Source: Atribacterota bacterium (lineage in GTDB: Bacteria; Atribacterota; Phoenicimicrobiia; Phoenicimicrobiales; Stramentimicrobiaceae). Taken from it: DNA of 28,133 nucleotides. The translations under genes were made by a program, and so were the position numbers. The notes under the pieces were generated by a model. The model saw only the letters and a list, made by a program, of their open reading frames with translations. It searched no databases and was not told the origin of the DNA. Location of the stretch: assembly GCA_035376345.1 (NCBI GenBank), contig DAOSRJ010000002.1:1-28133 (forward strand), given 5' to 3'. Shown here in pieces: positions 232-25,836 of the stretch; positions within the stretch are counted from its first letter, which is position 1; every line of letters starts with the position of its first letter.

Positions 232-1716
232 TTAATAATTAACTTCAGTATCAGGATGTATTACCTGTATCCAAACATTACCAGGTTGTATAGCTAATCT
301 ATTGCCTTCTTTGTTATAAAAGAAGGTTTTTGATCTCAAAGACTCCTTAGACCAGGTTATTTCTTCTGATCTGCCATTATAAATAATTATTCCCGTTCCC
401 TTGCCAATAAAATCAACTGCCAGCCTGCCTTCACTATCCAGTATCTTTTTGTCACTGTGCTGGATTACAAGATTCTTAACTTGCAACTGCTGACCAGTTT
501 CCTGATCAATATGAGGCTCATTATTGATAAAACGAATATATCTCTGAATCTCAGGATTGTATTTATAACTGACAGTGTAATTAGCATTGTATCTGATATC
601 TATCTTTTGAACTTCTTTGCCTGTTAATTGTTCTTTGGAGTCAATTTCAAATTGATAATCACCCCTATTAACCATTTCAATATACCCCAGCCTTTTTGCT
701 TCCCCTCTAAGCTGTTCAGTAGAAGCATATAGATTATGGGGAGGTTTTCGCTCCGGAATTCTCCAGAAAGGTTGATAATGAACCAGTTCATTGATATCAT
801 CTATTCTTTCTTCTTTTATAAATATGGCGGCATCAGGACTTTCTCCGGCATGCACGTAAATAGCATTGTGTTCCAGGGCTTTAGTAATGAAATAGGGTCT
901 GGCACTACGGATAGGACCAACTTTGCCAGCATCCTGGGTAGCAAAAATGGCTAAAAAACGTGTTATACCACCTTCTGCCAGTACTTCATAAACAATATTG
1001 GCCTTGTCCAGTCCACTTTGTGGCCGGGAATTATTAGCATTATCAATCATAATAGCTAATGGCCTCTGGTCAAAAGGAGATTCTTTTTCTGCAGTCCTAG
1101 GTAAAGTACTTAATTCCCCCGGGGTAACGATGGTTCCATAGGTAGATTCAATTCGCTCTTGTCCCGCTAAGCCCAGTCTGGCCTGTATTTCAAATTCGCC
1201 TCTTTCCAGCACCTCTCCTTCTATCTCTCTCCTGCTGGCAATACTGGGGGTTAAGTCTTGGGCAGCAATTTGTACATCAGGTATGATGGATATCTCCTCT
1301 TTAATTTGAGCTACTTCCTCTTTGGCTGGAATATCAATTTCAGGCATTTTAACTTCTACCCTGGGACTGCTTTCTACTACCATCTCTTTTTTTTCTACCA
1401 ATGGCTTTGTTTCAGTTTCTTGTATTCTAGCCGGCTCTGGTAAGGCGGGTTCCACTCTCGGCCTGACACTGGTCTCGGCAACTGGTTCTTCTCTGGTAAT
1501 CTCAGGCCTTACCGTAGTGGGATTTTTGATAGAAGGCAGTTCAACCATAGTTACCATAATAATATCTTCCAGTTCTGGAATATTAATAAGTTCAAAAGAA
1601 ATGAGATTATTAAAAACCAGTATGAATATTATATTAAGAATTATGGAAATTAGAAATGAACGCCCTAAAAACCCTTTTGAACGTAACTTTTTTCTTTGTG
1701 CTCTATATCCTGTCAT
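232..1716 (-). CDS. Chimeric protein: TonB-like N-terminal anchor plus Pro/Glu-rich spacer fused to a C-terminal DUF3048 (YerB-like) domain
   Basis: Basic N-tail, single TM (aa ~19-39) with S24-x3-N28, and IMVTMVELP motif. There are 14 Pro in aa 61-160. From aa ~217, DUF3048 signatures appear: RPLAIMIDN, RPQSGL, VYEVLAEGGITRFLAIF, GPIRSAR, HAGES, PPHNLY, and C-terminal G--WIQV. The gene lies directly downstream of exbB-exbD. Confidence 0.8.
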   Translation of the reverse strand: MTGYRAQRKKLRSKGFLGRSFLISIILNIIFILVFNNLISFELINIPELEDIIMVTMVELPSIKNPTTVRPEITREEPVAETSVRPRVEPALPEPARIQETETKPLVEKKEMVVESSPRVEVKMPEIDIPAKEEVAQIKEEISIIPDVQIAAQDLTPSIASRREIEGEVLERGEFEIQARLGLAGQERIESTYGTIVTPGELSTLPRTAEKESPFDQRPLAIMIDNANNSRPQSGLDKANIVYEVLAEGGITRFLAIFATQDAGKVGPIRSARPYFITKALEHNAIYVHAGESPDAAIFIKEERIDDINELVHYQPFWRIPERKPPHNLYASTEQLRGEAKRLGYIEMVNRGDYQFEIDSKEQLTGKEVQKIDIRYNANYTVSYKYNPEIQRYIRFINNEPHIDQETGQQLQVKNLVIQHSDKKILDSEGRLAVDFIGKGTGIIIYNGRSEEITWSKESLRSKTFFYNKEGNRLAIQPGNVWIQVIHPDTEVNY

Positions 1717-1759: not shown

Positions 1760-2167
1760 TCAATTTTCCCTGGGCTTTGTAGCTATGGCAATCCTTTCTG
1801 CCCCACCTTTTTTAATCAGGTCCATAACTCTAACCACTTTCCCATGGGTTATATTTTGATCTGCTTCCAAAACAACTAAAGAATTGGTATTATTCTTAAT
1901 CTCTTCTTTTATCTTTTCAGATAAAGAATTAGGATCTATTAAGTGATTATTGATATAAAGTACATTATTTTCAGTAATAGTAACCACTACATTTTTCTGT
2001 TCTTTTACTGCAGCAAAATCGCCACTGGGCAGATCAACTTTAACACCACTCTCCACATTTATGAAGGTAGTGGTTAACATGAAAAAAAGGAGTAGTTGAA
2101 ACACAACATCAACTAAGGGAGTTAAATCAAATTTCAGAGTCTTGGTATTGGGATGATAAAATTTCAT
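1760..2167 (-). CDS. exbD: ExbD/TolR family biopolymer transport protein
   Basis: LTPLVDVVFQLLLFFM TM with the conserved Asp; C-terminal LEAD...HGKVVRVMDLIKKGG; GAGGAGG SD upstream of ATG 2167. Confidence 0.92.
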   Translation of the reverse strand: MKFYHPNTKTLKFDLTPLVDVVFQLLLFFMLTTTFINVESGVKVDLPSGDFAAVKEQKNVVVTITENNVLYINNHLIDPNSLSEKIKEEIKNNTNSLVVLEADQNITHGKVVRVMDLIKKGGAERIAIATKPREN

Positions 2168-2798
2168 CTATTTTTACATCCTCCTCTTTAATTTCTCTTT
2201 TTGATGATAAAAGATCTAATATTTCTATACTGGTTGCCTCCATCTCTTTGACCTGTCTCTCCACCCTGTTGTTGAGATAATTGTAAGCAACTATGGTGGG
2301 AATAGCTACCGAAAGACCAAAAGCAGTAGTTAATAATGCCTCAGAAATAGCACCAGCCAGAGCTTCAGGATTACCAACACCCACTATAGAAATTACCTGG
2401 AATCCTTTTATCATACCGAAAACGGTACCTAATAATCCCAATAGAGGGGCAATATTCCCCACAGTAGCCAGTATTGGCAAATTTTTTTCCAAAACAGCTA
2501 TCTCCTGGTTGGCAGTATCTTCGATTGCTTCTTTGATTTCATCTCTGGAACTGCCATATTTCAATAAAGCTGCCAAAATTATTTGAGAGATAGGGGAATA
2601 ATTTTTACGGCAGGCAGTAATCGCATAATTAATATTTCCTTTCCTGATCAGGTCACTAATACGACTGCTAAATTTGCGGGTAGAAGTTTTAATGCTCCTA
2701 AGATAAAACATTCTTTCAAAGAAAATGGCAATAGCCAGCAAGGAGCAGAAAAAAATGGGGTACATTAAAAAACCGCCTTTATAAAACATTTCAAACAT
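2127..2798 (-). CDS. exbB: MotA/TolQ/ExbB proton channel protein
   Basis: KGG-LMYP N-terminus; APLLGLLGTV-GMI (conserved Thr); ISEALLTTAFGL (conserved Glu/Thr); three TM segments; GGAGG SD. Confidence 0.92.
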   Translation of the reverse strand: MFEMFYKGGFLMYPIFFCSLLAIAIFFERMFYLRSIKTSTRKFSSRISDLIRKGNINYAITACRKNYSPISQIILAALLKYGSSRDEIKEAIEDTANQEIAVLEKNLPILATVGNIAPLLGLLGTVFGMIKGFQVISIVGVGNPEALAGAISEALLTTAFGLSVAIPTIVAYNYLNNRVERQVKEMEATSIEILDLLSSKREIKEEDVKIDEILSSQYQDSEI

Positions 2799-2933: not shown

Positions 2934-5900
2934 TTATTCTGATTTCTTTCTGGCAAAATCTGCATAAGATGATTCAGGACAGTTTTTGATAATCATTTCA
3001 TATTTTTGATTTGCCTGTAGTTCATTACCTAGCTCTTCCTGGCACAGAGCAGTAATATATAAGATATCACATACCAATACGCCGGTAGGAATGTCTTTCA
3101 GATATCTGTCTCCGACCTGTACCGCTTTTTCATATTCCCCTTTTTTAAAGTAACTCAGGCAAAGTCCATATAAAGAATTTGGAATATATTTACTATCGGG
3201 GAAACGATCCAATAATTTTTCAAAATTTATAATACTATCAAACCATTCCTGCTCTTCCAGGTCAATCTGTGCCAAAATATAAATGCCCTCTTCAGCAAAT
3301 TGACTCATAGGATGATTCTTTACAAAATCCTGTATTTTTGCTCTGGCTTCATTATAATTTTTTACTAAAAACTGTATCTTACCCAAGAGATAGTTACCTT
3401 CCTCTGAAAACTGACTCTCAGAATAATCCTGAACGAGCCTGCCAAATGATTCCAAAGCTAAGGGATAATCGTGAAGATTCAGATAGCTCCAGCTCACGCT
3501 GTACTGTACATGCGCAGCTAAAGAATGGGAACTATAATATTTAAGAAATTCCTGGTAATAGTGTATTGCTTCTGAATATTTATCTTGTTTATAGTAAGTT
3601 TCCCCTAACATATATAAAGCTCTTATGGCTACCTCATCACCAGCAAAATAATTAATACTATGGAAATACTCTTCAGCCTGGAAATAATCAGCCAAACGAT
3701 AATAACAGAGGCCCTGCCAGTAATTAATCTCTTGTCTCATCTTATCAGTGTTAACAGTATTCTCTACCTTTTTAAAAAGGTCTGCGGCTTCCTGATAGGC
3801 CCCTTTCTCATATTTATCTTTAGCCAAGCTGAAATAGCCCTCCCTGACCATAGCATCATCTGCTGTTTGCTCGGTTAAATCCTGATAGAGAGAAAGCAAC
3901 TTTTCCTCATTATTTATTTTTCGGGCTGCCTCAATCTTAAGTTCTATTGCTTCCTGACTGTTAATGTTTTCCAATATATTCAATACATCCTGATATTGTG
4001 TCAGCTGATAGTAACTTTGAGCCAGTTCCTGAGTAGCAATGGTTGAGAGCTCTCCTGCCGGAAACTGACGGACAACCCTTTCAAAATAAGTAGATGCTTC
4101 CTGGTCCTGACCTTTTCTAGCGTAAGCCAAACCTAAATCAAACAACACCTTTTCCAATATACTACCATCGATGTTCTGTTCAGCTAAGGAACTGTCAATG
4201 TCAATTACCCGGTCATAATCTTTTTGTTCTAACAATACCCTGGCTAACAGATATTGGGCTTCCACCTTAACCTGGCTTTCCTTTTTGGCCAATTCCTCCA
4301 GAATTACCATTGCTTCTTGATATTTACCCTCTTTAAATAGTGTAAAACTATAATGATACTTAGTTTCATTAATTAATTCAAAGGAAGGGTTGTTATTCAT
4401 AATATCTGTAAAATAACCCTTAGCTTTATCATACAAACCTTCCCAGAAGTAGGATTGTCCTAAGATGTATTCAATTTCAAATTTATCAAATTTCAGAGGA
4501 TCAACAGTTGATAGATTTTCATACAGGTTAATTGTCTGGGAATACTTCTTCTGTGCAAAATATATTCTTCCTAATTTATAAACTCCCTCTAAATAAAGGG
4601 TACTTCTGGGAAAGTTTTTAATTAGTAACTCTAAATCGATTTCAGCCTGTTGATAATTTCCCAATAAATAAGCGGTCCAGCCATTACCTAATAAGGAATT
4701 TTCATAATACTGGCTCTCTCCGTAATTATCTATTATATATTGATAATGTTGATTTGCTTCTCCATAATCTCCCAATTCATAGGCAGTTTCAGCCATAAGG
4801 AATCTGGCTTCTAAAAAATCAGGATTGATTGCCAGCACTTCTCTCAATTTTTCCAGGGCTTTTGCATATTCGCCCAGAGAATAAAAGTTATAAGCTAACT
4901 GATAATATTCCTTCTCCCAATCGACATCAAAGGCCTGATCCCCGCCTATTCGCTCTCTTTCTGCCAGGTATTCCTCCATCTGATTTAGATGGTAGTAAGT
5001 ACGCATTAAGTAGATCCTGGTTTTTTCAAAATTGGGGTTTATTTGAACCGATTCTTTAAACTTCAGTAAGGCATCCTGATATTCTCCCTCAGTATAATAT
5101 TTATAACCCTGGTTAAAAATCCAGACTGCTTCTCTGCCAAATTCTTTTTCTTCCATCGCTTTATTCAAATATATGCGGGCATTATTGTCAAAAGGGTCTA
5201 AACGGACCGTGGCTTCCAGATATTTAATAGAGTTATTTAAATCCCCCGCATGATAATAGCTCAATCCTAAAAAATAATTGGCCCCCTTGAAATCCTTACT
5301 GAGGTTTATAGCTAATTTAAAGAATTCAATAGCTTCCGGCCACTTTTTGTTACTATAGGCATTATACCCTGTGACATACAGTTCATAAGCTTCTCTGCCA
5401 TATATTTCAGCCTGTTGATACTGACTCACCACCCAATCAATATCCCGGTCTGGCTCTATCTTTTTTATTTCTTCTCCCTGTTCCAGTGCTTTGTCAGTCT
5501 GCCCTGATTCATAATAAATTCTCATCAGCAAGATTCTAGCTTTAATGTTATTTGGCTGATAAAAAACAGAATCAGTAAGGTTTTGAATAGTAGAAGCAGT
5601 CTTTCCCTGCTCATAATTTGAATAGGCTAAGCGATAGAGAGCTTCTGAAAGTCTTCGATAACTTATTTTAATATTGCTATTATTTTGAGCAACTTCAATA
5701 AAATTTTCCAGGCTCACTATTTCACGGGCGGTCCATTTCGTCTTTTCGTAGATCTGGGATAGCAGATAGTATGCTTCAGCAAAATGAGGATCCTCGGCTA
5801 CAGCTTTTTCTCCATATTCAATGGCCTTAGACCAGAGTGGTTTGCTGGGAAAGTCTATCCCCTGATATTCGGTTGTAGCCTGGTTTTTTAATTCCAGAGA

Positions 5901-6545
5901 CAGATAGTAATACCTTAAAGCTACCAAAGAGGTGGAAATATTCTTTTTCAGGTTAAGAGCTAAATCCTCATCAATATATAAATTGGTTTCCTGTAAAATA
6001 GTCTGGGCAATATGTTCTTTTAAGTAGAATAGATCTTCCGGTATGATGGTCATTTCCCGGAATTCAAATAGTTGATCAGACTTAGATTGGTACATAACCA
6101 GATTAAACTTGAGTATGTCTCTCTGTTCAAGAGTAAAATAACCGGTAAAAAGTAGGTCAGTTTTTAATAAATCACTTAGAGAACCGAACAGATTTAAGTC
6201 TCTGTCCACTGCTAATCTTTGGTATAAATCGATTTCTGGTAATTTTTCTATTTCTTCCAGAGAAACGAAATCTATTTTCTCTGATTGAGAAAAAGTATGG
6301 CTCAACATATCAGGTAAACCTCTCTCCAACCAATCCCAATCATCCTTTCCTGTCAGGTTGTCAAAATAATATACCGCAAAACTGTTTATTTCTGATGCAG
6401 TGGAAGAAAGGGTAAGAGCAGTACAGAATAATATTATGATGCAGATCGAAAATAGGCAATGTAATAATAATTTATTCAATAAAGTTTTAGAGGGATTCTG
6501 CAATCTATTTTCCCGCCAGTTTAAAAAAATGAACCTTATTTTCAC
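2934..6545 (-). CDS. Large exported TPR protein with N-terminal CsgG/TolB_N/FlgO-like domain and many CpoB/BamD-like TPRs
   Basis: GTG start. Hydrophobic signal segment at aa ~22-50. FAVYYFDNLTG--DWDWL--GLPDML pattern (aa 56-81) is typical of TolB_N/CsgG-like alpha/beta domains. Many helical-repeat motifs follow (e.g. A-Y-LG--YY--G-Y--A---F). Confidence 0.8.
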   Translation of the reverse strand: MKIRFIFLNWRENRLQNPSKTLLNKLLLHCLFSICIIILFCTALTLSSTASEINSFAVYYFDNLTGKDDWDWLERGLPDMLSHTFSQSEKIDFVSLEEIEKLPEIDLYQRLAVDRDLNLFGSLSDLLKTDLLFTGYFTLEQRDILKFNLVMYQSKSDQLFEFREMTIIPEDLFYLKEHIAQTILQETNLYIDEDLALNLKKNISTSLVALRYYYLSLELKNQATTEYQGIDFPSKPLWSKAIEYGEKAVAEDPHFAEAYYLLSQIYEKTKWTAREIVSLENFIEVAQNNSNIKISYRRLSEALYRLAYSNYEQGKTASTIQNLTDSVFYQPNNIKARILLMRIYYESGQTDKALEQGEEIKKIEPDRDIDWVVSQYQQAEIYGREAYELYVTGYNAYSNKKWPEAIEFFKLAINLSKDFKGANYFLGLSYYHAGDLNNSIKYLEATVRLDPFDNNARIYLNKAMEEKEFGREAVWIFNQGYKYYTEGEYQDALLKFKESVQINPNFEKTRIYLMRTYYHLNQMEEYLAERERIGGDQAFDVDWEKEYYQLAYNFYSLGEYAKALEKLREVLAINPDFLEARFLMAETAYELGDYGEANQHYQYIIDNYGESQYYENSLLGNGWTAYLLGNYQQAEIDLELLIKNFPRSTLYLEGVYKLGRIYFAQKKYSQTINLYENLSTVDPLKFDKFEIEYILGQSYFWEGLYDKAKGYFTDIMNNNPSFELINETKYHYSFTLFKEGKYQEAMVILEELAKKESQVKVEAQYLLARVLLEQKDYDRVIDIDSSLAEQNIDGSILEKVLFDLGLAYARKGQDQEASTYFERVVRQFPAGELSTIATQELAQSYYQLTQYQDVLNILENINSQEAIELKIEAARKINNEEKLLSLYQDLTEQTADDAMVREGYFSLAKDKYEKGAYQEAADLFKKVENTVNTDKMRQEINYWQGLCYYRLADYFQAEEYFHSINYFAGDEVAIRALYMLGETYYKQDKYSEAIHYYQEFLKYYSSHSLAAHVQYSVSWSYLNLHDYPLALESFGRLVQDYSESQFSEEGNYLLGKIQFLVKNYNEARAKIQDFVKNHPMSQFAEEGIYILAQIDLEEQEWFDSIINFEKLLDRFPDSKYIPNSLYGLCLSYFKKGEYEKAVQVGDRYLKDIPTGVLVCDILYITALCQEELGNELQANQKYEMIIKNCPESSYADFARKKSE

Positions 6546-9510: not shown

Positions 9511-11013
9511 TCACATCACCTTTAAAATCTTTTTGATATCCTTCTTCTTTCCAACCGCGATAACCTTTATCTTTTCAATATGAAGATCTGTCAATGCTTT
9601 AATATATATACTCTTCTCATAATCCCGCTCCAACTGTTTTATGAGTAACATCTTTCCTCCAGAAAGTGCTTCTTCCACTTTGTGGTTTACACCTAGCAGG
9701 ATTGCTTCTGCTTTAGAGTTTTTACCTAAATCCTCTAATTTTTGTAATACCAGATTACTAATTGTTTCCGGTGAGAGAATACGTCCATTACCCGAACAAT
9801 AGGGGCAGGCAGTACGTAATAAGGAATCCAGGTCTCTCTTGGAACGCTTTCTGGTCATCTCCACCAAACCTAATTCACTCGTTTGTACAATATTTGATCG
9901 TGTTCTATCTTTTTTTAATTCCCCTTCTAAGGTTTTTATTACCTTCTCCTGATCTTCCTTATTATCCATATCGATAAAATCAATGATAATAATGCCGCCA
10001 ATATCTCTTAACCTTAATTGCCGGGCAATCTCTTCAGCAGCCTGTAGATTAGTTTTCAAAATGGTATTACGCATTTTTTTACCACCCACATATTTTCCCG
10101 TATTCACATCAACAACGGTAAGTGCTTCAACTTCATCAAAAACAAGATAGCCTCCACATTTGAGCCAAACCTTTTTCTCTAAAGCCTTGCTAATTTCTTT
10201 TTCTATATTATAAGCTTCAAATATTGGCTTATCTCCATCATAATACGAAACCCTGGGTTTTAATTCCAATAAAAAAAGCGTATCCAGATAATTAATTATT
10301 TTTTCATATTCTGTTTCAGAATTAACCACAAATTCATCAATTTCTTCAGTAAACAGGTCTCTGATAACCCGATAAGTCAGGCTTAGGTCTTCATGTAGCA
10401 AAAGCGGGGTCTTGACCCGACGGCTTCGCTTCTGTATTTTGTCCCATAAACGGACCAGAAAATCCATATCAGGCAGCAAGTCCTCTTCGCCTTTACCTAT
10501 AGCAGCAGTTCTCACAATAAACCCATAATCATTTTTCCTGATGTTTTGAACTATTTTTTTGAGTTTCTCCCTTTCTTCTTCCTGTGCAATTCTTCTAGAA
10601 ACCGCAACAGTATTATTATTGGGCATTAAAACCAGATAGCGACCTGGTAAACTTATATTGGTGGTAACCTTTGCTCCCTTAGGTATAATGGCTTCCTTAA
10701 CTACCTGCACATCAATCTCCTGCCCTACTTTAATTAATTTATTGACATCAGTGTTCTTGCCATCCTTGCGGCCAAAGGCTTGCAGAACATCATTTAAGTG
10801 TAAAAAGGCATTTCTATCGATACCTATGTCAATAAATGCAGCCTCTATTCCCGGCAAAACATTCATAACCCTTCCTTTATAAATATTGCCAATGATTTTT
10901 TTATCTTCCAATCTTTCAATGTAGATCTCTACTAATTTATTATTCTCTAAGATAGCAATCCTTTCTTCGCTCAAACCGCTATCAATTATTACTTGTTTAG
11001 CTCTATACTCCAT
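9511..11013 (-). CDS. rng: Rne/Rng family ribonuclease (RNase G)
   Basis: GNIYKGRV-NVLPG-EAAFIDIG (S1 domain); TVVDVNTG and GGIIIIDFIDM catalytic motifs; CPYC Zn-link; 500 aa with no long C-terminal scaffold. Confidence 0.93.
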   Translation of the reverse strand: MEYRAKQVIIDSGLSEERIAILENNKLVEIYIERLEDKKIIGNIYKGRVMNVLPGIEAAFIDIGIDRNAFLHLNDVLQAFGRKDGKNTDVNKLIKVGQEIDVQVVKEAIIPKGAKVTTNISLPGRYLVLMPNNNTVAVSRRIAQEEEREKLKKIVQNIRKNDYGFIVRTAAIGKGEEDLLPDMDFLVRLWDKIQKRSRRVKTPLLLHEDLSLTYRVIRDLFTEEIDEFVVNSETEYEKIINYLDTLFLLELKPRVSYYDGDKPIFEAYNIEKEISKALEKKVWLKCGGYLVFDEVEALTVVDVNTGKYVGGKKMRNTILKTNLQAAEEIARQLRLRDIGGIIIIDFIDMDNKEDQEKVIKTLEGELKKDRTRSNIVQTSELGLVEMTRKRSKRDLDSLLRTACPYCSGNGRILSPETISNLVLQKLEDLGKNSKAEAILLGVNHKVEEALSGGKMLLIKQLERDYEKSIYIKALTDLHIEKIKVIAVGKKKDIKKILKVM

Positions 11014-11133
11014 ATCCAGGAGCCACCTTCCTCTTAGTTCTTGGTTGTATAACCTGTTAAATCAATTAATATTTTTATTTACAAATTACTTCTTATGGGA
11101 TTCCATAGAATTATTGTATAACACAATTCTTAA

Positions 11134-11832
11134 TTATGCAGTAGAATCTATTAAGAATTTCTCCCTTACTATTTTTTCTATAATAACAGATTCCTCGAGA
11201 CCGGTCAGTAATTTGCCAATAATTAAACGGGGATTTAGAGATCTCCCCTGTTCCATACTGAGTATTAAACGGATAATTAACCGGCTATCGCTTCTGCATA
11301 TAATATTTATTTCCTGAATAAAGGGACGTAAATCTAATTCTGTTATCCCTTTTTTTGTTTTTGCGGCTATTATAATTTCTTTTTGCTTCAACAAATCATT
11401 AATAAATAGTTCTATCCTATCCTGAATAGCTCTTTTCTTACTTTTTAGGATAGTGTTCTGAAATCTCAAATAAACTAAATAGGAAAAACCCTTTAATAGT
11501 TTACCCAAAGAGATTTTTTCCTTTTGTGAAAATATCGGTTTTACCTCTATTACTTTAAAGCCAGAGGGGGCAGCCTTGTTAATTTTATCTATTAATACCT
11601 CACTGATTAATGGTTCAATTAGGGATAATTCCATTATTTCCTGCCATCCCTCCAGACCAAGGGGTAAAGCGGGACCAAAGGAAACCTTCATTCTGGGATT
11701 AAATCCCTCGGACAATTCTACCGGTATCTCTGCCCGTAATAGCACCCTCCGCCATAAAGAGTTTAGATCCAGATGAGAGATGAACCTCAAAGAACCATTC
11801 TTTTTGTATTTTATGCGATATAGATAGGACAT
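11134..11832 (-). CDS. TIGR03936 radical SAM-associated protein (DUF2344)
   Basis: YRIKY-K-G--RFISHLD...S-GFNP--KVSFGPALPLG; C-terminal K-KKG--E-DLRPFI; canonical position between the TIGR03960 gene and rng. Confidence 0.88.
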   Translation of the reverse strand: MSYLYRIKYKKNGSLRFISHLDLNSLWRRVLLRAEIPVELSEGFNPRMKVSFGPALPLGLEGWQEIMELSLIEPLISEVLIDKINKAAPSGFKVIEVKPIFSQKEKISLGKLLKGFSYLVYLRFQNTILKSKKRAIQDRIELFINDLLKQKEIIIAAKTKKGITELDLRPFIQEINIICRSDSRLIIRLILSMEQGRSLNPRLIIGKLLTGLEESVIIEKIVREKFLIDSTA

Positions 11833-11868
11833 AAATACACATTTCTTTCAATTTACACTGGTGAAATT

Positions 11869-13752
11869 CTATATTTTTTCATTACCTGAAAACCCTGTAT
11901 CGGCACATACGCTTTCCAAACCACAGCCCTGACATTTTATCAAACGACAATCATCGGTACTAATTCCCTGTAAAGCTTTCTCCCATTCTCTCCACAGATA
12001 TTGCCTTTCCACACCACAATCTATCAAATCCCAGGGCATAATTTCATCTTTTTCTCTTTCGCGGTGGGCATAGAAAGACATAGTTAGATTATGTTTTTGA
12101 AAAGATTCCTGCCAGCTCTCGAAATTAAAATAATCCTGCCAGGAATCAAATTTGCATCCCTTGCGAAAAGCCTCCTCTATTACATCTCCTAATCGCCTAT
12201 CGCCACGGGAAAAAACAGCCTCCAGTAAGAGTAGCCTGGTATCAGGAAAACGACAGGAAACATTTCTACTTCTTACAGCCTTAACAATATGATTAAACTT
12301 TTTTAACAGCTGATCTTCTTTTTCCTGAGCAACCCATTGAAATGGGGTATGGGGCTTGGGCACCAATGCATTGATGCTTACATTTAACAAAAATTTTTTC
12401 CCTGCTCTTTCCCTCCCCATTATTTCTACTTTTTTTATCAGCTTAACAATATCTTCAATATCATCCCAGGTTTCACAAGGTAGCCCTATCATAAAATAAA
12501 GCTTCATCCTCCTCCAGCCCATTTCTAGGGCATTTTGCACAGTCTTATATAAATCCTGGGCATTAACGTTTTTATTGATTATTTTGCTCATACGTTCAGA
12601 CCCTACCTCGGGTGCAAAAGTTAAACCTGTTTTCCTTACCCTCTGAGTCTGTTCAGCCAAAAATAAGGAAAAGCTATCTATTCTTAAGGATGGTAAAGAG
12701 ATTCCAACTCCCTTTTTTTGATAACGGTCTACCAATATTTTTGTTATCTCATCTATATGGCTATAATCACTGGAACTTAAGGAAGAGAGGGAGATTTCTT
12801 CATATCCGGTCTGTCGAATACTCTTTTCCGCTAATTCTAGCAAGCAATCTACTGAACGTTCTCTCACCGGCCTATAGATAATACCAGCCTGACAAAATCG
12901 GCAGCCACGGGTACAACCCCGAAATATTTCTAAAGTAATCCTATTATGTATGATATCAATATTGGGCACTATAGGCATAATGGGAAAAGGAGCTTGATCC
13001 AGGTTTTTCACAATTCCTTTTTTTATCCTTAAAGGGGCTTCTGGTACAGTCTTCTGGTATGATTTTACCTTGCCGCTCATATGATATTCTACCTGATAAA
13101 AACTGGGGATATAAATGCCAGTATTGATCTGCAGCAATTTTTTAAAAAGTTTCTGTTTACCATTTCTTTCTTTTTTGGTGGACCATTCTTTGTAAACATC
13201 GATAATTTCATTAATAATTTCTTCCCCGTCACCTATCACAAATAAATCTATAAATTCAGCTAAAGGTTCTGGGTTAAAGGCAGTGGGTCCTCCGGCAATT
13301 ATTAAAGGTCTGGCTGAGTCTCTATCGCTAGCCCGTAAAGGTATTTTCCCCAAATTGAGTATATTCAAAACATTGGTATAGCTCAATTCATACTGCAGGC
13401 TAAAACCGATAATATCAAACTCATCTAAAGGTCTGAAACTTTCCAGAGAAAATAGAGTAATTCCTTCATTTCGTAAATAGTTTTCCAGATCGGCTGCAGG
13501 AGCGTAAACCCTTTCTGCCCACGAATCATCTCTTCTGTTTATAATATCATAGAGAATTTTAAGCCCTAAATGACTCATTCCTATTTCATATAAATCAGGA
13601 AAAACCAGTGCAATTTTAATCAGTTTTTCATCGTTTTTTTTAATGATCTCATTATACTCTTTTCCCGTATAACGACCCGGCTTTTCTACCTTTTCTAATA
13701 TTCTATATATAGCTTCCTTATTTGACTTTCTTTTTACTTGCTCTCTATTTAT
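11869..13752 (-). CDS. TIGR03960 family B12-binding radical SAM protein (start extended upstream of the ORF-track call)
   Basis: CTRGCRFC motif; GFSLQYEL-YTN; AGGP--FNPEP; C-terminal C--C--CG. The frame stays open 58 codons upstream of ATG 13578 and encodes the family N-terminus KVEKPGRY-G-E-N...ALVFPDLYEIGMSHLG. The exact start is uncertain (ATA at 13752 or 13710). Confidence 0.85.
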   Translation of the reverse strand: MNREQVKRKSNKEAIYRILEKVEKPGRYTGKEYNEIIKKNDEKLIKIALVFPDLYEIGMSHLGLKILYDIINRRDDSWAERVYAPAADLENYLRNEGITLFSLESFRPLDEFDIIGFSLQYELSYTNVLNILNLGKIPLRASDRDSARPLIIAGGPTAFNPEPLAEFIDLFVIGDGEEIINEIIDVYKEWSTKKERNGKQKLFKKLLQINTGIYIPSFYQVEYHMSGKVKSYQKTVPEAPLRIKKGIVKNLDQAPFPIMPIVPNIDIIHNRITLEIFRGCTRGCRFCQAGIIYRPVRERSVDCLLELAEKSIRQTGYEEISLSSLSSSDYSHIDEITKILVDRYQKKGVGISLPSLRIDSFSLFLAEQTQRVRKTGLTFAPEVGSERMSKIINKNVNAQDLYKTVQNALEMGWRRMKLYFMIGLPCETWDDIEDIVKLIKKVEIMGRERAGKKFLLNVSINALVPKPHTPFQWVAQEKEDQLLKKFNHIVKAVRSRNVSCRFPDTRLLLLEAVFSRGDRRLGDVIEEAFRKGCKFDSWQDYFNFESWQESFQKHNLTMSFYAHREREKDEIMPWDLIDCGVERQYLWREWEKALQGISTDDCRLIKCQGCGLESVCADTGFSGNEKI

Positions 13753-13779
13753 ATAAATACCTCTCTTTAATTAACAGAA

Positions 13780-14931
13780 TTAAACAAATATACTTCTTAC
13801 ATGAATATTTAGCAATAGACCTATACCAATAAAGTTGGAAACCATAAAGGTCCCACCATAGCTAATAAAAGGCAAGGGCAATCCTGTTGCCGGCATCAGC
13901 CCCATAGACATACCAATATTAATAAAAATCTGAACAAACAGAAAAGAAGTAACGCCAGCAGCAAGAAAGGAACCAAATAAATCTGGTGCTTCCTGGGCAA
14001 TTCTAATACCTTTCCATAAGAGCAGTATAAAGAATGTTAATAGTAGCAAAGCGCCAATAAATCCTAACTCCTCCCCTAAAACAGCAAAGACAAAATCGGT
14101 ATGCTGGGAGGGTAAAAATTTTAGTTGACTCTGAATTCCACTAAATAATCCTTTACCTAAAAAACCACCAGAGCCAATGGCAACTTTTGATTGAATAATA
14201 TTGTAACCGGCACCCAGAGGATCCCTTTCGGGATTTAAAAAAAGTATCAGTCTATTTCTTTGGTAATCCTTAAGTAAGGACCAGGTAATAGGAAATAAAG
14301 ATAAAATTGTTAAAAAAACAATTATGATATACTGCCATCTGATTCCCGCAATAAAAACTATGAGCAAGGTTATGGCAAAAAAGACTATAGCGGTACCTAA
14401 ATCAGGTTGTTTATAGCTTAATAACATTAAAATTCCGGCAAACAGTAGTGGTAGAGAAAAATATACAAAATCGGGTAACTTATCCTTTTGCCGGCTTAAA
14501 AAATCTGATAAAAAGATAATCAGGGCAATTTTGGCAAACTCTGCAGGTTGAAACTCCTGTCCCGCTAATTGAATCCAGCGCCTTGCTCCGCCGATTTCTT
14601 TTCCAAAATAAATTACATAGATTAATAGTATTATGGACAGGATATAACCAGGAATAGCTATTTTGGCAACTTCATGGTAGTCAATCATAGTTATCAAAAA
14701 ACAGATTAGTAAGCTAGACAGGATTGAAATTAATTGCCTTTTAGCAAATTGTGTGGTTCCATCAGCCATAATTTCCTGATGTGTACTGCTGTAAATAATC
14801 AACAGACCTAAAATACAGAGGCCTAAAGCTAAAAAAACTATACTATAATCAATATGTTTTACCAAACGAAAATAGCGATTAAAAAATGACTTACCTGATA
14901 TCAACCGCGACGAATTTATATTATTTGACAT
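13780..14931 (-). CDS. rodA: Rod shape-determining protein RodA (SEDS transglycosylase)
   Basis: GARRWI...FQPAEFAKI; QPDLGT; YQ-NR...DPLGAGYNI-QS--AIGSGG--GKG; LP-QHTDF-F----EELGF; TG-PLPFISYGG. Confidence 0.95.
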   Translation of the reverse strand: MSNNINSSRLISGKSFFNRYFRLVKHIDYSIVFLALGLCILGLLIIYSSTHQEIMADGTTQFAKRQLISILSSLLICFLITMIDYHEVAKIAIPGYILSIILLIYVIYFGKEIGGARRWIQLAGQEFQPAEFAKIALIIFLSDFLSRQKDKLPDFVYFSLPLLFAGILMLLSYKQPDLGTAIVFFAITLLIVFIAGIRWQYIIIVFLTILSLFPITWSLLKDYQRNRLILFLNPERDPLGAGYNIIQSKVAIGSGGFLGKGLFSGIQSQLKFLPSQHTDFVFAVLGEELGFIGALLLLTFFILLLWKGIRIAQEAPDLFGSFLAAGVTSFLFVQIFINIGMSMGLMPATGLPLPFISYGGTFMVSNFIGIGLLLNIHVRSIFV

Positions 14932-14961
14932 TATAACCTCATTTGATCTGTTTAAATAATT

Positions 14962-16752
14962 TCAACCTTTCACTATTTGCAAATATTTAAGTTGAAAATA
15001 TTTTCGTATAATATTGCCAGCAATTGGAGCCGCGGTAGCACTTCCGTCTCCCCCATGTTCAATAAATACGGTTATACAAACTTCAGGATGTTCAAAAGGG
15101 GCAAATCCAATAAACCAAGCATGATTTTCCCCTTGTGGATTTTGAGCCGTACCGGTTTTACCAGCAATTTTCATTTCTTCAATATTTGCTAAATAGCCAG
15201 TTCCACTTTCCACTACCCTTCTCATACCTTCTTTAATAATTCTGAAGGTATCTTTAGCCACGTCTATCTCTTTTACTATTTCCGGTTCAAATTGTTCCAT
15301 TATTTCTCCTGAGGGAGAAACAATCCTCTCCACATAGTAGGGCTTATAATAACATCCATCATTAACAATTAAGCAGAGCATATTATGAACTTGTAGAGGT
15401 GTAACCAGTAAAAACCCTTGTCCGATAGACATGTTAACAGAATCTCCAGGATACCAGGACTGATTAAAGGTTTTCCTTTTCCATTCCTGGGAAGGCACTA
15501 ACCCTACCTGCTCTGCTGGTAAACTAATTCCTGTACTTTCACCAAACCCCATCAATTTTGCATAATGGCTTAATCTATCAATTCCCAACCTATGCCCCAT
15601 AGTATAGAAAAATACATTGCAGGAATTTGCAATAGCATCAACTATAGCTCTACTTCCATGCCCGGTTTCCTTCCAGCATCTGAATGTTACATCTCCAACC
15701 TTGTAATACCCTGGACAGTAAACGCTACTATTTATATCTATGATTCCTTCCTCCAGGGCCGCAATGGCAGTTACAAGCTTAAAAACAGAACCGGGTGGAT
15801 AAACGCTTTGGATAGTGCGATTGCATAAAATATTATCTTTATTTTGGGCAATTTCCTGCCACTGTTTTAAGGTAATCTGCTGGGTAAATATATTGGGGTC
15901 ATAATCTGGATAGCTAACCATAGCTAATATCTTACCAGTATGTGGCTCGCTCAGGATTATGGCACCCTTTTTCCCGTTCATCTGCTCTTCAATAAACCTT
16001 TGTAGCTCACTATTTAGTGTTAAATAAATATCGTTTCCGGCTACTGGCTTCTGTGATTTAAGGATAGTAACTTCCCGGCCAAGGGCATCTATTTCTACCT
16101 CTTTTCTCCCTTTTTCACCTCTCAAAAAAGAATCATAATAACGTTCCAGCCCTGATTTTCCAACCATATCACCACCGATTAAATTATCAAAAGTGGTAGA
16201 CTTCAGTTCTTCTTCACTAACTTCATTAACATAGCCCAGAAGATGTGCAGCAAAATTATGATAAAGATATTTCCTTTCTGGCTGCACTGTTAAGAGGGTA
16301 CCTTTAAATTTATATTTCTGTTCTTCAATAGCTACTATCTTATCTTTTTCCAAATCTCTTTTTATGGTAAGTGCCTGAAAGGGATTTTGTTTAAGATTCT
16401 TTAGTTTGCTAAGAAAGCTGGCGGAATCGATGGGAATAATTGAACTAAGGTCATCGGTCAGAGTTTGATAATTACTTATTTCAGCCGGTATTACCGAAAA
16501 ATTTACAGCTGGCCGGTTAGTAACCAGTATATTGCCCTGCTGGTCATATATTTCTCCTCTGGGAGCCTCTTCCACCAAAGCTCTGATACAATTATTAATA
16601 GCTCTTTGTTCAAACTCTTTTCCCCTGATTATCTGTAAATACCAGAGATTTAATAATATAATGACGAAACAAAGGGTTATTAAAATAAAAAAATCATTTA
16701 ACCTTTTTTTGATTATTTCTTTGCTTTTTTTCTTGTTTTTTTGGCTAAACAT
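14962..16752 (-). CDS. mrdA: Penicillin-binding protein 2 (class B)
   Basis: N-terminal TM and LWYLQII-G; APRG-IYD; transpeptidase motifs SVFK (SxxK), SCN (SxN), KTG. Confidence 0.95.
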   Translation of the reverse strand: MFSQKNKKKSKEIIKKRLNDFFILITLCFVIILLNLWYLQIIRGKEFEQRAINNCIRALVEEAPRGEIYDQQGNILVTNRPAVNFSVIPAEISNYQTLTDDLSSIIPIDSASFLSKLKNLKQNPFQALTIKRDLEKDKIVAIEEQKYKFKGTLLTVQPERKYLYHNFAAHLLGYVNEVSEEELKSTTFDNLIGGDMVGKSGLERYYDSFLRGEKGRKEVEIDALGREVTILKSQKPVAGNDIYLTLNSELQRFIEEQMNGKKGAIILSEPHTGKILAMVSYPDYDPNIFTQQITLKQWQEIAQNKDNILCNRTIQSVYPPGSVFKLVTAIAALEEGIIDINSSVYCPGYYKVGDVTFRCWKETGHGSRAIVDAIANSCNVFFYTMGHRLGIDRLSHYAKLMGFGESTGISLPAEQVGLVPSQEWKRKTFNQSWYPGDSVNMSIGQGFLLVTPLQVHNMLCLIVNDGCYYKPYYVERIVSPSGEIMEQFEPEIVKEIDVAKDTFRIIKEGMRRVVESGTGYLANIEEMKIAGKTGTAQNPQGENHAWFIGFAPFEHPEVCITVFIEHGGDGSATAAPIAGNIIRKYFQLKYLQIVKG

Positions 16753-22746: not shown

Positions 22747-25700
22747 ATGGGAAATTTTAAAAGATTCTTTAAAAAGAAGGTTTTTTTATTCCTTGTTTTC
22801 TTCTTCTCCCTGCTACTATTCTATGCGCTATCAGGCCTGGTTTTTAATAATTTTTCACCAAATGTTGCTCACAGTAAAAATTATGACACATCACTTGACT
22901 GGACAGTGTTGGATGGCAGGTATTGTTCAGTAATCTTTCCAGCAGGTATTTTAATTGATTATGATACAACCTATGATCATATTGCCCTTCATATTGCTAA
23001 CTTAGCTGATGAGGTATATTCCCAGATAACCCCGCAGTTTGGAGAACCTTTCCACAAAAATAAGAGATTTACCATTATTTTGGAAGATTTCAGTGATTCT
23101 GCCTATGGTTTTGCCACTACCATGCCTCATCGTCTCATCAGAGTGAATCTGACTGTACCCGGACCGGAAATTTTTGATACAAAGTTTGAAAGCTGGCTCA
23201 GAATCTTGTTAGCACATGAATATACGCACTTGGCTCATTTTGATATGACTGATAAAATAACCACATTTCTGCACTTTTTTTTAGGTCAGATTATAACCCC
23301 CAATGCTTTACAGCCTCTCTGGTCTATTGAAGGATTGGCTATTTATAATGAGAGTAGACTGAATACCGGTGGCCGCCTCACAGATAACAGATATGAGATG
23401 TACCTCAGAACTGATTTTATGGAAAACAGTATAAAAAACCCCGCACTGTTAGAGGGAAGTTACCTGGTCTCCTGGCCAGGAGGGAATATACCCTATATTT
23501 ATGGGCAATCACTGGTTCATTATATTGCCAGCCACTATGGAGAAGAAAAATTAATTGCTATCAGTGAACAGTTTTCCTCATTTCCCCTATCAGGGATGGA
23601 TTGGGCTTTAAAAAAGATATTAGGCATCACTCAGGAAGAACTATATCAGCAATGGCAGGAGGAAAAAGAGCATTACTTTAACCAACAAATTGAACAAATT
23701 ATTTCTGCTCATAAAATTACAGAATCACAGCAAATTACCAACCATCGATACTGGGTTGAGAAACCTTCCTGGATAGTAGATAATACCCTTCAGAATACCT
23801 TTCTGGTTTATAAAGTTTTTACTCCACATTTTTATCCCACTATTCGTAAATATAACCTGAACTCTCAAAAAGAAAGTGTTGTTGTAAAACGGACAGCGGG
23901 ACTTGGTACCTCTTACTCTTTTTCACCAGACTCCCAATACCTTCTTTATAGCAAGCTGGTCCAGTATGACCAGTATTATTCCTACCAGGACCTATTCTTG
24001 TATCATTTAAATAGTGGTAAGCAATTCCAGCTTACCGAAAAGTTGAGGATCAAAGACCCGTCCTGGTATCCTGACCCTGCCGCAGGCAGAGCAGCTGCCA
24101 TTATCAATCAGGCTGGCACCAATAACCTGGTCTTATTTTCTCTAAAAACCCCTTTACTGGACGGAAAATTCGATCAGCCAGAAATAATTACCTCTTCTGA
24201 TCTTATTTATCTAACCGATTTTAACGATGGAACTCAAATCTCTCAACCGGTCTGGTCGCCCCGGGGTAACCAGCTTGCTCTTTCTTTGTGGCACAAAGGA
24301 TACCAGGATATTTATATAATTACCTTTGATAATTACTTTACCATACAATCTATCAGACCAATTGCAATTGATCGATATACAGATATTAACCCTTGCTGGT
24401 CAGGTGATGGTAAATACCTTTATTTTTGTTCTGACCGCAGTGGTATATATAATATTTATGCTTATTCTTTAGCAGATGAAAAACTCTTCCAGTTAACCAA
24501 TGTAGTTACCGGTGCCTTTGAACCTGCTATCGCTCCAGATAGCAAAGACCTGGCTTATATACAATACCATTCTTCTGGCTATGAATTGCATTTGGTAAAA
24601 AGCGATGATTTGCTCTGGGAATCAGTGGAAAAACCTGAGATAACCCCCTCTATCATTCTCCCGGCTCTAAAAAATGATAAGGTCTATTTTCCTGAAATGC
24701 AGCCTATGAATAATGAAGAAAATACCCGCTCAAAATTAGCTAAAATCACTTCCAGATACGACCCCGGCTATACCTTAAAAAAATACTCGCCCAGGAATAG
24801 CATTCTTCCCACTTACTGGGTTCCTTATTTCGGTATCATTGAAAATAACCTTTACCTGGGTCTTTCCGCTCAGGCTCAGGACTATCTGGAATTTTACCAG
24901 ATCCCGGCTACTATTGCTTATAGCCCTTTTTATGATTCCTTATTTTATAGCTGCCAGCTTTATAGCTATATTAATGAACCATCTTTATCATTATCATGGG
25001 AGGGCGAAACCTCTTCTTACACCGAGTTCCAATTAACCTTAAGATTTAATGATAGTGGTTATACTTCTCAGGGAGATTCTGGCCGCCTTTTCTCCAGAAA
25101 TTTTTCTATAGGGGTACAGAGTGAATATTTATGGGCAAACCAGGAGCCACAGGCTGAGCTTCCACTAAAAGACTCTACCCTGATTAATTCTTTGTTGTTA
25201 AGATATGCTTACAATGATACCGAAAAATATCAATGGTCTTCCAGTCCCGAATTAGGTAATTCTTATTCTCTCAGCTATCAATATGGATTACCATTCCCAG
25301 ATTCTGAGACTACCTTTCACAAATTCCTCTTTGATAGCCGTAAATATTTCTCACTGCCTCATTCCCACCAGGTTGTAGCTTTACGGCTGGTAGCTGGCCA
25401 TCTTTCCAACCAGGAAAATGAAGAAAGACAATTCAGTTTAGGTGGAAGTATTTCGGCTCAAAACCTTAGCTCAGTAAATACCAAAAATTTTTCTTTAAGA
25501 GGGTTCCCCTCTTCCTCTTTTGCAGGTAATAATCTTTTGCTTGGCTCATTGGAGTATCGCTTTCCGCTAAAAAAACCAGAACGTAAAATTGGTTTCCATG
25601 CGGTATCTGTCTTTTTAGAACAAGTTTCAGGAACACTGTTTTTAGAGGCTGGACAGGTCTGGAATGAGACATTGTTGCCCTCTTTTGAGGATATTAAGAT

Positions 25701-25836
25701 TTCCATGGGTGGAGAGATTGTATTTACTTTAAAACTAAGATATACAGAACCCTTGCTATTATCTCTGGGAATTGGTAAAGCAATTAGTGAACCCCTACCA
25801 GCCCGTTTTTATGGACGGATAGGCCTTTCCTTTTAA
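22747..25836 (+). CDS. Outer-membrane protein: gluzincin-type peptidase domain + PD40/TolB-like beta-propeller + Omp85/BamA-type C-terminal barrel
   Basis: N-terminal signal/TM; HEYTH (aa 157-161) with downstream W-IEGLA; PD40 repeats (SFSPDS, PVWSPRG, PCWSGDG-YLYF-SDRSG, PAIAPDS); LRGF motif (aa 917-920); amphipathic strands ending in C-terminal Phe (GRIGLSF). Confidence 0.8.
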   Translation: MGNFKRFFKKKVFLFLVFFFSLLLFYALSGLVFNNFSPNVAHSKNYDTSLDWTVLDGRYCSVIFPAGILIDYDTTYDHIALHIANLADEVYSQITPQFGEPFHKNKRFTIILEDFSDSAYGFATTMPHRLIRVNLTVPGPEIFDTKFESWLRILLAHEYTHLAHFDMTDKITTFLHFFLGQIITPNALQPLWSIEGLAIYNESRLNTGGRLTDNRYEMYLRTDFMENSIKNPALLEGSYLVSWPGGNIPYIYGQSLVHYIASHYGEEKLIAISEQFSSFPLSGMDWALKKILGITQEELYQQWQEEKEHYFNQQIEQIISAHKITESQQITNHRYWVEKPSWIVDNTLQNTFLVYKVFTPHFYPTIRKYNLNSQKESVVVKRTAGLGTSYSFSPDSQYLLYSKLVQYDQYYSYQDLFLYHLNSGKQFQLTEKLRIKDPSWYPDPAAGRAAAIINQAGTNNLVLFSLKTPLLDGKFDQPEIITSSDLIYLTDFNDGTQISQPVWSPRGNQLALSLWHKGYQDIYIITFDNYFTIQSIRPIAIDRYTDINPCWSGDGKYLYFCSDRSGIYNIYAYSLADEKLFQLTNVVTGAFEPAIAPDSKDLAYIQYHSSGYELHLVKSDDLLWESVEKPEITPSIILPALKNDKVYFPEMQPMNNEENTRSKLAKITSRYDPGYTLKKYSPRNSILPTYWVPYFGIIENNLYLGLSAQAQDYLEFYQIPATIAYSPFYDSLFYSCQLYSYINEPSLSLSWEGETSSYTEFQLTLRFNDSGYTSQGDSGRLFSRNFSIGVQSEYLWANQEPQAELPLKDSTLINSLLLRYAYNDTEKYQWSSSPELGNSYSLSYQYGLPFPDSETTFHKFLFDSRKYFSLPHSHQVVALRLVAGHLSNQENEERQFSLGGSISAQNLSSVNTKNFSLRGFPSSSFAGNNLLLGSLEYRFPLKKPERKIGFHAVSVFLEQVSGTLFLEAGQVWNETLLPSFEDIKISMGGEIVFTLKLRYTEPLLLSLGIGKAISEPLPARFYGRIGLSF

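Follow-up and report, generated by a model that had tools for sequence, protein, structure and literature searches.

A DUF3048 domain on a TonB/TolA-like stalk, candidate transducer of a second ExbB/ExbD-type motor in Atribacterota

What is a DUF3048 domain doing at the end of a TonB-like stalk, and is that stalk driven by a motor? The question is raised by a minus-strand gene in the first 28,133 nucleotides of contig DAOSRJ010000002.1 from an Atribacterota bacterium (assembly GCA_035376345.1, a 1.6-Mb metagenome-assembled genome that is 94% complete); this whole stretch is referred to here as the window. The first-pass annotation, made from the letters alone, had noticed that the product of this gene opens like TonB, and it had expected pipelines to miss this and to label the gene by its DUF3048 domain. 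The public annotation does read just 'DUF3048 domain-containing protein'. We consider, with a probability of about 0.8, that the gene encodes the force-transducing third subunit, tipped with DUF3048, of a second motor of the ExbB/ExbD (TolQ/TolR) type driven by the proton-motive force. The coupling of the transducer to this motor is a candidate assignment drawn from sequence comparison.

The Ton and Tol-Pal systems were long the sole recognised routes by which inner-membrane energy is carried to the outer envelope. The DUF3048 family includes YerB of Bacillus subtilis, whose structure has been available since 2007 with no function assigned, and we found no functional study of DUF3048 or YerB in the literature. 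It was only in 2025 that a third energy route, tipped with the vWA (von Willebrand factor A) domain, was put forward (Williams-Jones et al. 2025, Mol Biol Evol msaf138, PMC12204202); the genes for these 'motor-driven force transducers' lie downstream of tetratricopeptide repeat (TPR), tolQ-like and tolR-like genes.

The N-terminus and spacer of the transducer

In the 494-aa protein, Pfam places DUF3048 at aa 211-345 (E 8.5e-47, 159.5 bits) and DUF3048_C at aa 372-483 (E 1.1e-30, 106.8 bits), both against a cut-off of 25 bits; the same scan finds no domain in aa 1-215, and TonB_C and TolA_C are both absent. The AlphaFold2 (AF2) model, built on 20 orthologues, consists of a helix at aa 19-40, a long segment at aa 42-214 with a predicted local distance difference test (pLDDT) score below 50, and a head with a pLDDT of about 90. 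The spacer between the membrane segment and the head (aa 62-211) contains 18% Glu and 10% Pro and has a net charge of -10. Most of what the first-pass annotation described can be read directly from the protein: the basic tail, the transmembrane helix and the strings INIPELE and IIMVTMVELP are all present, the count of 14 prolines in aa 61-160 is exact, and both DUF3048 domains are complete, the first of them starting at aa 211. The spacer is predicted to be disordered. The two strings that it had set in parallel with TonB differ in their conservation, since IIMVTMVELP is conserved in the form h-h-V-x-L-h-E-h-P and INIPELE varies.

Judged from profile comparisons, the likeness of this N-terminus to TonB is beyond chance. 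Of 18,950 NCBIfam models scanned with 20 N-terminal parts, just two recurred as matches: TonB, for 8 of the 20 members (best E 8.6e-6), and TolA, for 4 of the 20. When 1.84 billion (1.84e9) representative proteins were searched with a profile built from the N-terminus alone, there were 17 matches at E <= 1e-3, of which 12 are members or fragments of the family itself; the other five, 262-332 aa in length, all carry TonB_C/TonB_2, and two of them bear the source name TonB. In a joint alignment of the stalk::DUF3048 proteins with TonB_C proteins, the Ser of the transmembrane helix is invariant, a His or Asn stands four residues on, and the strand motif is in register. The comparison of the N-terminal profile with those TonBs by hhalign gave a probability of 97.6% and E 2.8e-12 over the transmembrane helix and the motor box. 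Profile similarity to TonB proteins, whose absence from aa 1-70 would have refuted the first reading, is present. One of the five outside matches, P0137, a TonB family protein of Aquificota with a TonB_C domain, has S-x3-N in its transmembrane helix; the Asn variant is therefore not confined to DUF3048 stalks.

The conserved residues of the N-terminus are those expected to face the motor. In cryo-electron microscopy structures, S16 and H20 of TonB and S18 and H22 of TolA are the contacts with ExbB and TolQ, respectively (10.1101/2024.10.08.617233), and in E. coli TonB, Asn is a full substitute for His20 (Swayne & Postle 2011, PMC3147502). Across the 20 orthologues, whose N-terminal parts are about 20% identical, three residues (S24, E59 and P61) never vary, and two more (N28 and V55) hardly do. 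Position 28 is Asn except in family f7 (L041, P0125, P0140), where it is His and gives the canonical S-x3-H; His also occupies this position in three lineages outside Atribacterota. A post-membrane beta-strand, the 'motor box', is reported for every TonB and for 93% of TolAs (PMC12204202). Of the features that mark a TonB/TolA-class N-terminus, the S-x3-(N/H) transmembrane helix, a disordered Pro-rich domain II and linkage to a motor are present here, and the conserved motif at aa 48-61 aligns with the corresponding stretch of TonB_C proteins. The length of the spacer, 138-164 aa and mostly 146-153 aa in 39 orthologues despite the divergence of its sequence, fits a distance-setting stalk.

The adjoining motor and its conservation

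The strongest support for the TonB reading, a point absent from the first-pass annotation, is the position of exbB and exbD directly upstream of the transducer gene, on the same strand. The two motor genes overlap by 41 nt, the transducer start codon lies 43 bp downstream of exbD, and the transmembrane Asp of the encoded ExbD is present in the string PLVDVVF. The order TPR-exbB-exbD-transducer is complete in 9 of 10 distant loci, with identities down to 35%; the remaining one (L042) is truncated within exbD by the end of its contig. Of 86 Atribacterota genomes, 82 have the long form of the transducer, and each of the 29 genera is represented (29/29).

The same arrangement is seen outside the phylum. 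All stalk::DUF3048 genes whose upstream region is on the contig follow exbB-exbD, except the one in G138, a genome that has a matching exbD. In the 712-aa stalk form of G138, the transmembrane helix contains SLIIH, a motor-box-like sequence (DFLEVSLVTLEG) is present, the spacer extends over about 400 aa, and the head is 43% identical to that of the window protein. A homologue search from the G138 protein led to two more stalk forms: P0155 (742 aa, SLTLH), whose gene stands directly after exbB-exbD, and P0172/P0173 (637-648 aa; SVIVH in P0172, SFIVH in P0173), whose genes lie about 270-325 bp downstream of exbB-exbD. According to the Atlas, a 657-aa DUF3048 cluster is commonest in Deinococcota, and the neighbourhood of the L057 transducer holds DUF3248 and DUF3809, which we take to be Deinococcus-Thermus families.

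In the genome itself, exbB is present twice, and TonB_C and DUF3048 are each encoded by a single gene; each motor therefore has its own candidate transducer. The canonical Ton cluster lies on contig C128 of this genome, G000 (L002: 2-790, 859-1737, 1757-2371, 2355-2795), and comprises the C-terminal part of a TonB-dependent receptor, tonB, exbB and exbD; the TonB encoded there has 292 aa, S-x3-H in its transmembrane helix and a TonB_C domain. The window ExbD is closer to the ExbD proteins associated with DUF3048 transducers in other lineages (42.5% identity and 100 bits to the one beside the L057 transducer, 45% and 92 bits to the only ExbD of G138) than to the TonB-linked ExbD of its own genome (31.5%, 31-51 bits). 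In this small sample, the type of ExbD appears to track the type of transducer across lineages. In NCBIfam, TolQ and TolR fit the window motor better than ExbB and ExbD do, with all scores below the curated cut-offs, and a canonical TonB system is present elsewhere in the genome; for these reasons, we prefer to describe the protein as a second motor's transducer, of the TonB/TolA class, rather than as a modified TonB.

Contigs from RNA libraries of three studies (sludge and biofilm) cover the transducer gene. They run from exbD into the transducer gene (392-1798 and 621-2032 are examples) and across the gap between the TPR gene and exbB. They give weak support to the expression of the transducer gene with exbD, because contigs can neither prove a single transcript nor exclude the carry-over of DNA. 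A scan of the block for promoters and terminators returned sites at chance level, and it found no terminator on the minus strand inside the block.

Competing explanations and possible role

In the mechanism that we propose, the transmembrane helix would dock on the ExbB pentamer through S24 and N28, and the motor box would bind the periplasmic domain of ExbD by strand pairing. Proton flow would then pull or turn the stalk, and the DUF3048 head would act on, or be released from, a partner in the zone of the wall and outer membrane.

Several points weigh against this interpretation. The five outside matches to TonB proteins are modest (E 7.5e-5 to 9.3e-4), the scores against the curated TonB and TolA models are far under their cut-offs (24 vs 315 bits), and the high hhalign probability comes from TonBs that this N-terminal profile had itself selected; when only the TonB of the window genome was compared with the profile, hhalign gave no significant match (E 0.074). 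Most members have Asn rather than His at the key transmembrane position, and the Leu and the second Ser of the SHLS motif are not strictly kept. The motor box has no predicted strand in the AF2 monomer, the stalk gene of G138 is not beside exbBD, and the Tol-like role of the transducer is read from context only. The predicted complex of two ExbD periplasmic domains with transducer aa 38-80 scored 0.04, which counts neither way.

The low similarity scores and the separate position of the G138 copy are also what one would expect if the protein were a passive anchor, that is, a DUF3048 enzyme or binding protein tethered to the membrane on a Pro-rich spacer, with ExbB-ExbD serving something else and the TonB likeness reflecting a generic membrane helix followed by prolines. 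Most DUF3048 proteins are indeed plain lipoproteins or secreted proteins. We nevertheless regard this explanation as unlikely, because S-x3-(N/H) and the motor-box motif are invariant in an N-terminus that has otherwise diverged so far across the phylum, all database matches outside the family are TonB_C proteins, a position beside exbBD is seen in three separate lineages, each motor of the genome has exactly one transducer, and transducer type and ExbD type covary. The other condition under which the first-pass annotation would have given up its reading, that this N-terminus be common in DUF3048 proteins of genomes lacking exbBD, does not hold: plain DUF3048 proteins usually begin differently. 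DUF3048 is present in 10 of the 315 sampled genomes of other families; in the nine other than G138, eight products were inspected, all but the larger copy in G317 (L068): seven of them start with a signal peptide or lipobox, in line with what the first-pass annotation had stated for the family in general, and that of G360 has a signal peptide and a helical N-domain.

Two further explanations accept the coupling to a motor and differ in the kind of machine. The block could be a divergent Tol-Pal system in which DUF3048 is the phylum's TolA domain III, accompanied by unrecognised equivalents of TolB and Pal. TolQ (1.2e-34) and TolR (3e-21) are the best NCBIfam models for the motor, the TPR giant has YbgF/CpoB repeats and a TolB-N-like fold, and the TolA model is matched by a fifth of the N-terminal parts scanned (4/20). 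Yet every Tol score lies under its curated cut-off, the head has the YerB fold over 280 aa (Z 34.7 to PDB 2PSB) and not a TolA_C/TonB_C domain of about 100 aa, no member of the OmpA/Pal (PF00691) or TolB_N (PF04052) families was found in the 94%-complete genome, and curated Tol-Pal systems were found only in Gracilicutes (PMC12204202), so that a true TolA seems very improbable. Alternatively, a motor-coupled DUF3048 head could open or gate an outer-membrane transporter for uptake, as in Ton-dependent import; TonB proteins are the closest relatives of the N-terminal part, and outer-membrane barrels and TonB-dependent receptors exist in Atribacterota. We hold this to be improbable as well, given that a receptor gene is absent in and beside the block at every locus examined, that the genome holds a separate and complete receptor-TonB-ExbBD set, and that DUF3048 occurs mainly in monoderms, as lipoproteins, where there is no outer-membrane transporter (control match in B. 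subtilis).

If the DUF3048-tipped protein is coupled to its motor as we propose, the odds are roughly even that its job is Tol-like upkeep of the envelope during growth and division rather than nutrient import. This role is favoured because the motor is TolQ/R-like, its partner is CpoB-like and TolB-N-like, no receptor is adjacent, a separate Ton set exists, and Pal and TolB were not found. A much wider proposal is tentative and, in our estimate, rather doubtful: the TPR giant, ExbB, ExbD and stalk::DUF3048 might form a third ancient class of trans-envelope machine driven by the proton-motive force, beside Ton and Tol-Pal, in diderms outside Gracilicutes that lack Tol-Pal. DUF3048 would then be a force-switched module of the wall or outer membrane, and the free DUF3048 lipoproteins of Firmicutes and Actinobacteria, including YerB, would share its substrate without having a motor.

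The closest published analogue of the window protein is the motor-driven force transducer group with a vWA tip, which has the same design with another head and other hosts. The two share an S-x3-H-type transmembrane motif, a disordered linker rich in Pro (about 100-150 aa) and a head unrelated to TonB_C/TolA_C; the motor box of the vWA transducers has a motor-box-like counterpart in the window protein, and in both the transducer gene lies downstream of TPR and tolQ/tolR-like genes. They differ in the head, which is DUF3048/YerB here and a vWA fold there; in the motor, where the window block has one exbD and the vWA systems a heterologous pair; and in the hosts, which are Proteobacteria, the Planctomycetes-Verrucomicrobia-Chlamydiae (PVC) group and Bacteroidota for the vWA transducers, and Atribacterota plus a few other lineages for the DUF3048 stalk. 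DUF3048 is not mentioned in PMC12204202 or in its supplementary material examined. With E. coli TonB, the protein shares the basic tail, the Ser and His/Asn four apart in the transmembrane helix, a strand-type motif after it, the Pro/Glu spacer, a gene beside exbB-exbD and the N-terminal profile similarity; unlike TonB, it is a transducer without TonB_C, mostly has Asn in place of His, and has no TonB-dependent receptor nearby. The resemblance to TolA and Tol-Pal consists of a TolQ/TolR-scoring motor, a CpoB-like and TolB-N-like TPR partner, and a conserved housekeeping block, whereas TolA_C is absent, the head is three times larger and of unrelated fold, and Pal/TolB were not found.

What looks new here is a DUF3048-tipped stalk with its own ExbB-ExbD, whose head and hosts are other than those of the vWA type. 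If the stalk indeed has a co-inherited motor of its own, the TonB/TolA stalk would be a reusable module able to bear different heads, and the system would be a candidate replacement for Tol-Pal in Atribacterota, where Pal and TolB are missing from our searches. It would also give the large orphan DUF3048 family, including B. subtilis YerB, its first testable context; the combination of stalk and motor is a candidate functional lead for this family, and the first of its kind.

The DUF3048 head, neighbouring genes and other forms

For the head, B. subtilis YerB (PDB 2PSB) was the match in a sequence search (E 3e-44), in Foldseek (E 9e-27, TM-score 0.84) and in VIA (Z 34.7, root-mean-square deviation (rmsd) 2.2 A over 271 residues). 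The first-pass annotation had suggested looking for enzymatic relatives by Foldseek, and only YerB/DUF3048 matched: 2PSB is the only significant Foldseek match in the PDB, the next VIA match has a Z of 3.4, and the clusters matched in the AlphaFold Database are only DUF3048. The window protein and YerB thus share the two-domain fold of the head, at 33% identity and an rmsd of 2.2-2.5 A, with the family-wide polar residues kept; proteins of the YerB type are either lipoproteins or secreted and have a short linker, in contrast to the TonB-like stalk beside a motor described here. In a set of 52 DUF3048 domains, which takes in plain lipoprotein forms and the Atribacterota paralogues that have only a signal peptide, N226, E244, R253, R270, S271, R273 and W455 are identical in 52/52, and Q233, Y243, E248, T252, H289 and Y393 are near-identical. 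Because every family-wide invariant polar residue is kept, the head probably shares the binding or catalytic activity of the free lipoprotein DUF3048 proteins, and the site, rich in Arg, Glu, Ser and His, suggests an anionic envelope ligand.

In the tree of heads, whose deep nodes are weak, the P0155/P0159 clade and the Atribacterota clade are separate. The free tree splits the stalk-fused heads, and a single clade of all of them received a p of 0.088 in the approximately unbiased (AU) test. The domain swap proposed in the first-pass annotation is supported in that DUF3048 is placed on a TonB/TolA-like stalk; a single swap behind all fused forms is neither shown nor rejected by this test.

The positions of the transducer, its parts and the other genes of the block are given in Table 1.

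Table 1. Features of the transducer gene and its block (window coordinates).
Feature	Position	Strand	Basis or remark
Transducer gene, whole: TonB/TolA-like N-terminus, spacer and DUF3048 head	232..1716	minus	494 aa (P0001)
Cytoplasmic basic tail, aa 1-18, 6 K/R	1663..1716	minus	sequence reading
Transmembrane helix, aa 19-40, S24 and N28 in the TonB/TolA S-x3-H register	1597..1662	minus	AF2, alignment
S24 codon (transmembrane helix)	1645-1647	minus	
N28 codon (transmembrane helix)	1633-1635	minus	
Post-membrane 'motor box'-like motif, aa 48-61, ELEDIIMVTMVELP	1534..1575	minus	alignment
Disordered Pro/Glu-rich spacer, aa 62-211	1084..1533	minus	AF2 pLDDT <50
DUF3048 + DUF3048_C head, YerB fold, aa 212-494	235..1083	minus	Pfam, PDB 2PSB match
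ExbD/TolR-type motor subunit	1760..2167	minus	Pfam ExbD E 7.9e-30; best NCBIfam model TolR (3e-21)
ExbB/TolQ-type motor subunit	2127..2798	minus	Pfam MotA_ExbB E 7.4e-36; best NCBIfam model TolQ (1.2e-34)
Giant secreted TPR protein, 1203 aa, YbgF/CpoB-like repeats, first gene of the block	2934..6545	minus	Pfam, NCBIfam
Region of the TPR protein (aa ~55-190) folded like the N-terminal domain of TolB	5976..6383	minus	AF2 mean pLDDT 83, Foldseek

The giant TPR protein unites TolB-N-like and CpoB-like parts in a single chain. For its N-domain, Foldseek ranks TolB structures first (about 138 columns at E 1.5e-4, with an rmsd of 2.8-4.2 A) and gives further matches to LpoB-C, PelC and CadC; the likeness to TolB is one of fold only. 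A contig from one RNA library (run X17) omits 135 nt, or 45 codons in frame, at 3078-3214 of the window, within the TPR gene, and may represent a strain variant without about one TPR repeat. In L037 (G019) and L040 (G012), an extra exbB-exbD pair precedes the TPR gene, the copies being nearly identical at the protein level. Inspected by eye, the first transmembrane helix of both Atribacterota ExbBs seems to keep the Ser and to lack the Trp that touches His20 of TonB in E. coli; we conclude nothing from this.

Within the spacer, the stretch at aa 156-182 (window 1171-1251) includes the string SRREIEGEV, which resembles the opening of TonB_C. This putative vestigial TonB_C motif (aa 156-169) is probably due to chance: no families but the two closest retain it, and families f3-f7 have unrelated residues there.

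Farther upstream of the block, the minus strand of the window at 9511-16752 encodes a PBP2-type transpeptidase, RodA, a radical-SAM/DUF2344 pair, RNase G, L21 (rplU) and Obg; these genes place the block in a housekeeping region that is rich in cell-shape genes. The sole large gene on the plus strand (22747-25836, 1029 aa) has a weak Pfam match to Peptidase_MA_2, below the cut-off, and PD40 repeats, which fits the outer-membrane protein with peptidase and propeller parts proposed by the first-pass annotation.

DUF3048 also occurs in architectures other than the long stalk form. Many Atribacterota have short paralogues of 303-340 aa in which a signal peptide directly precedes the domain (L059-L066, for example L063:5194-6129); these form a clade of their own, and the window genome has none. 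In L067:7475-9409 (G360) and P0141, a signal peptide is followed by a helical N-domain of about 250 aa and then by DUF3048. The G360 gene, the one gene inspected, sits between DUF502 and era, with no ftsEX near it. In P0165 (1178 aa), DUF3048 is combined with dockerin and CarboxypepD_reg domains.

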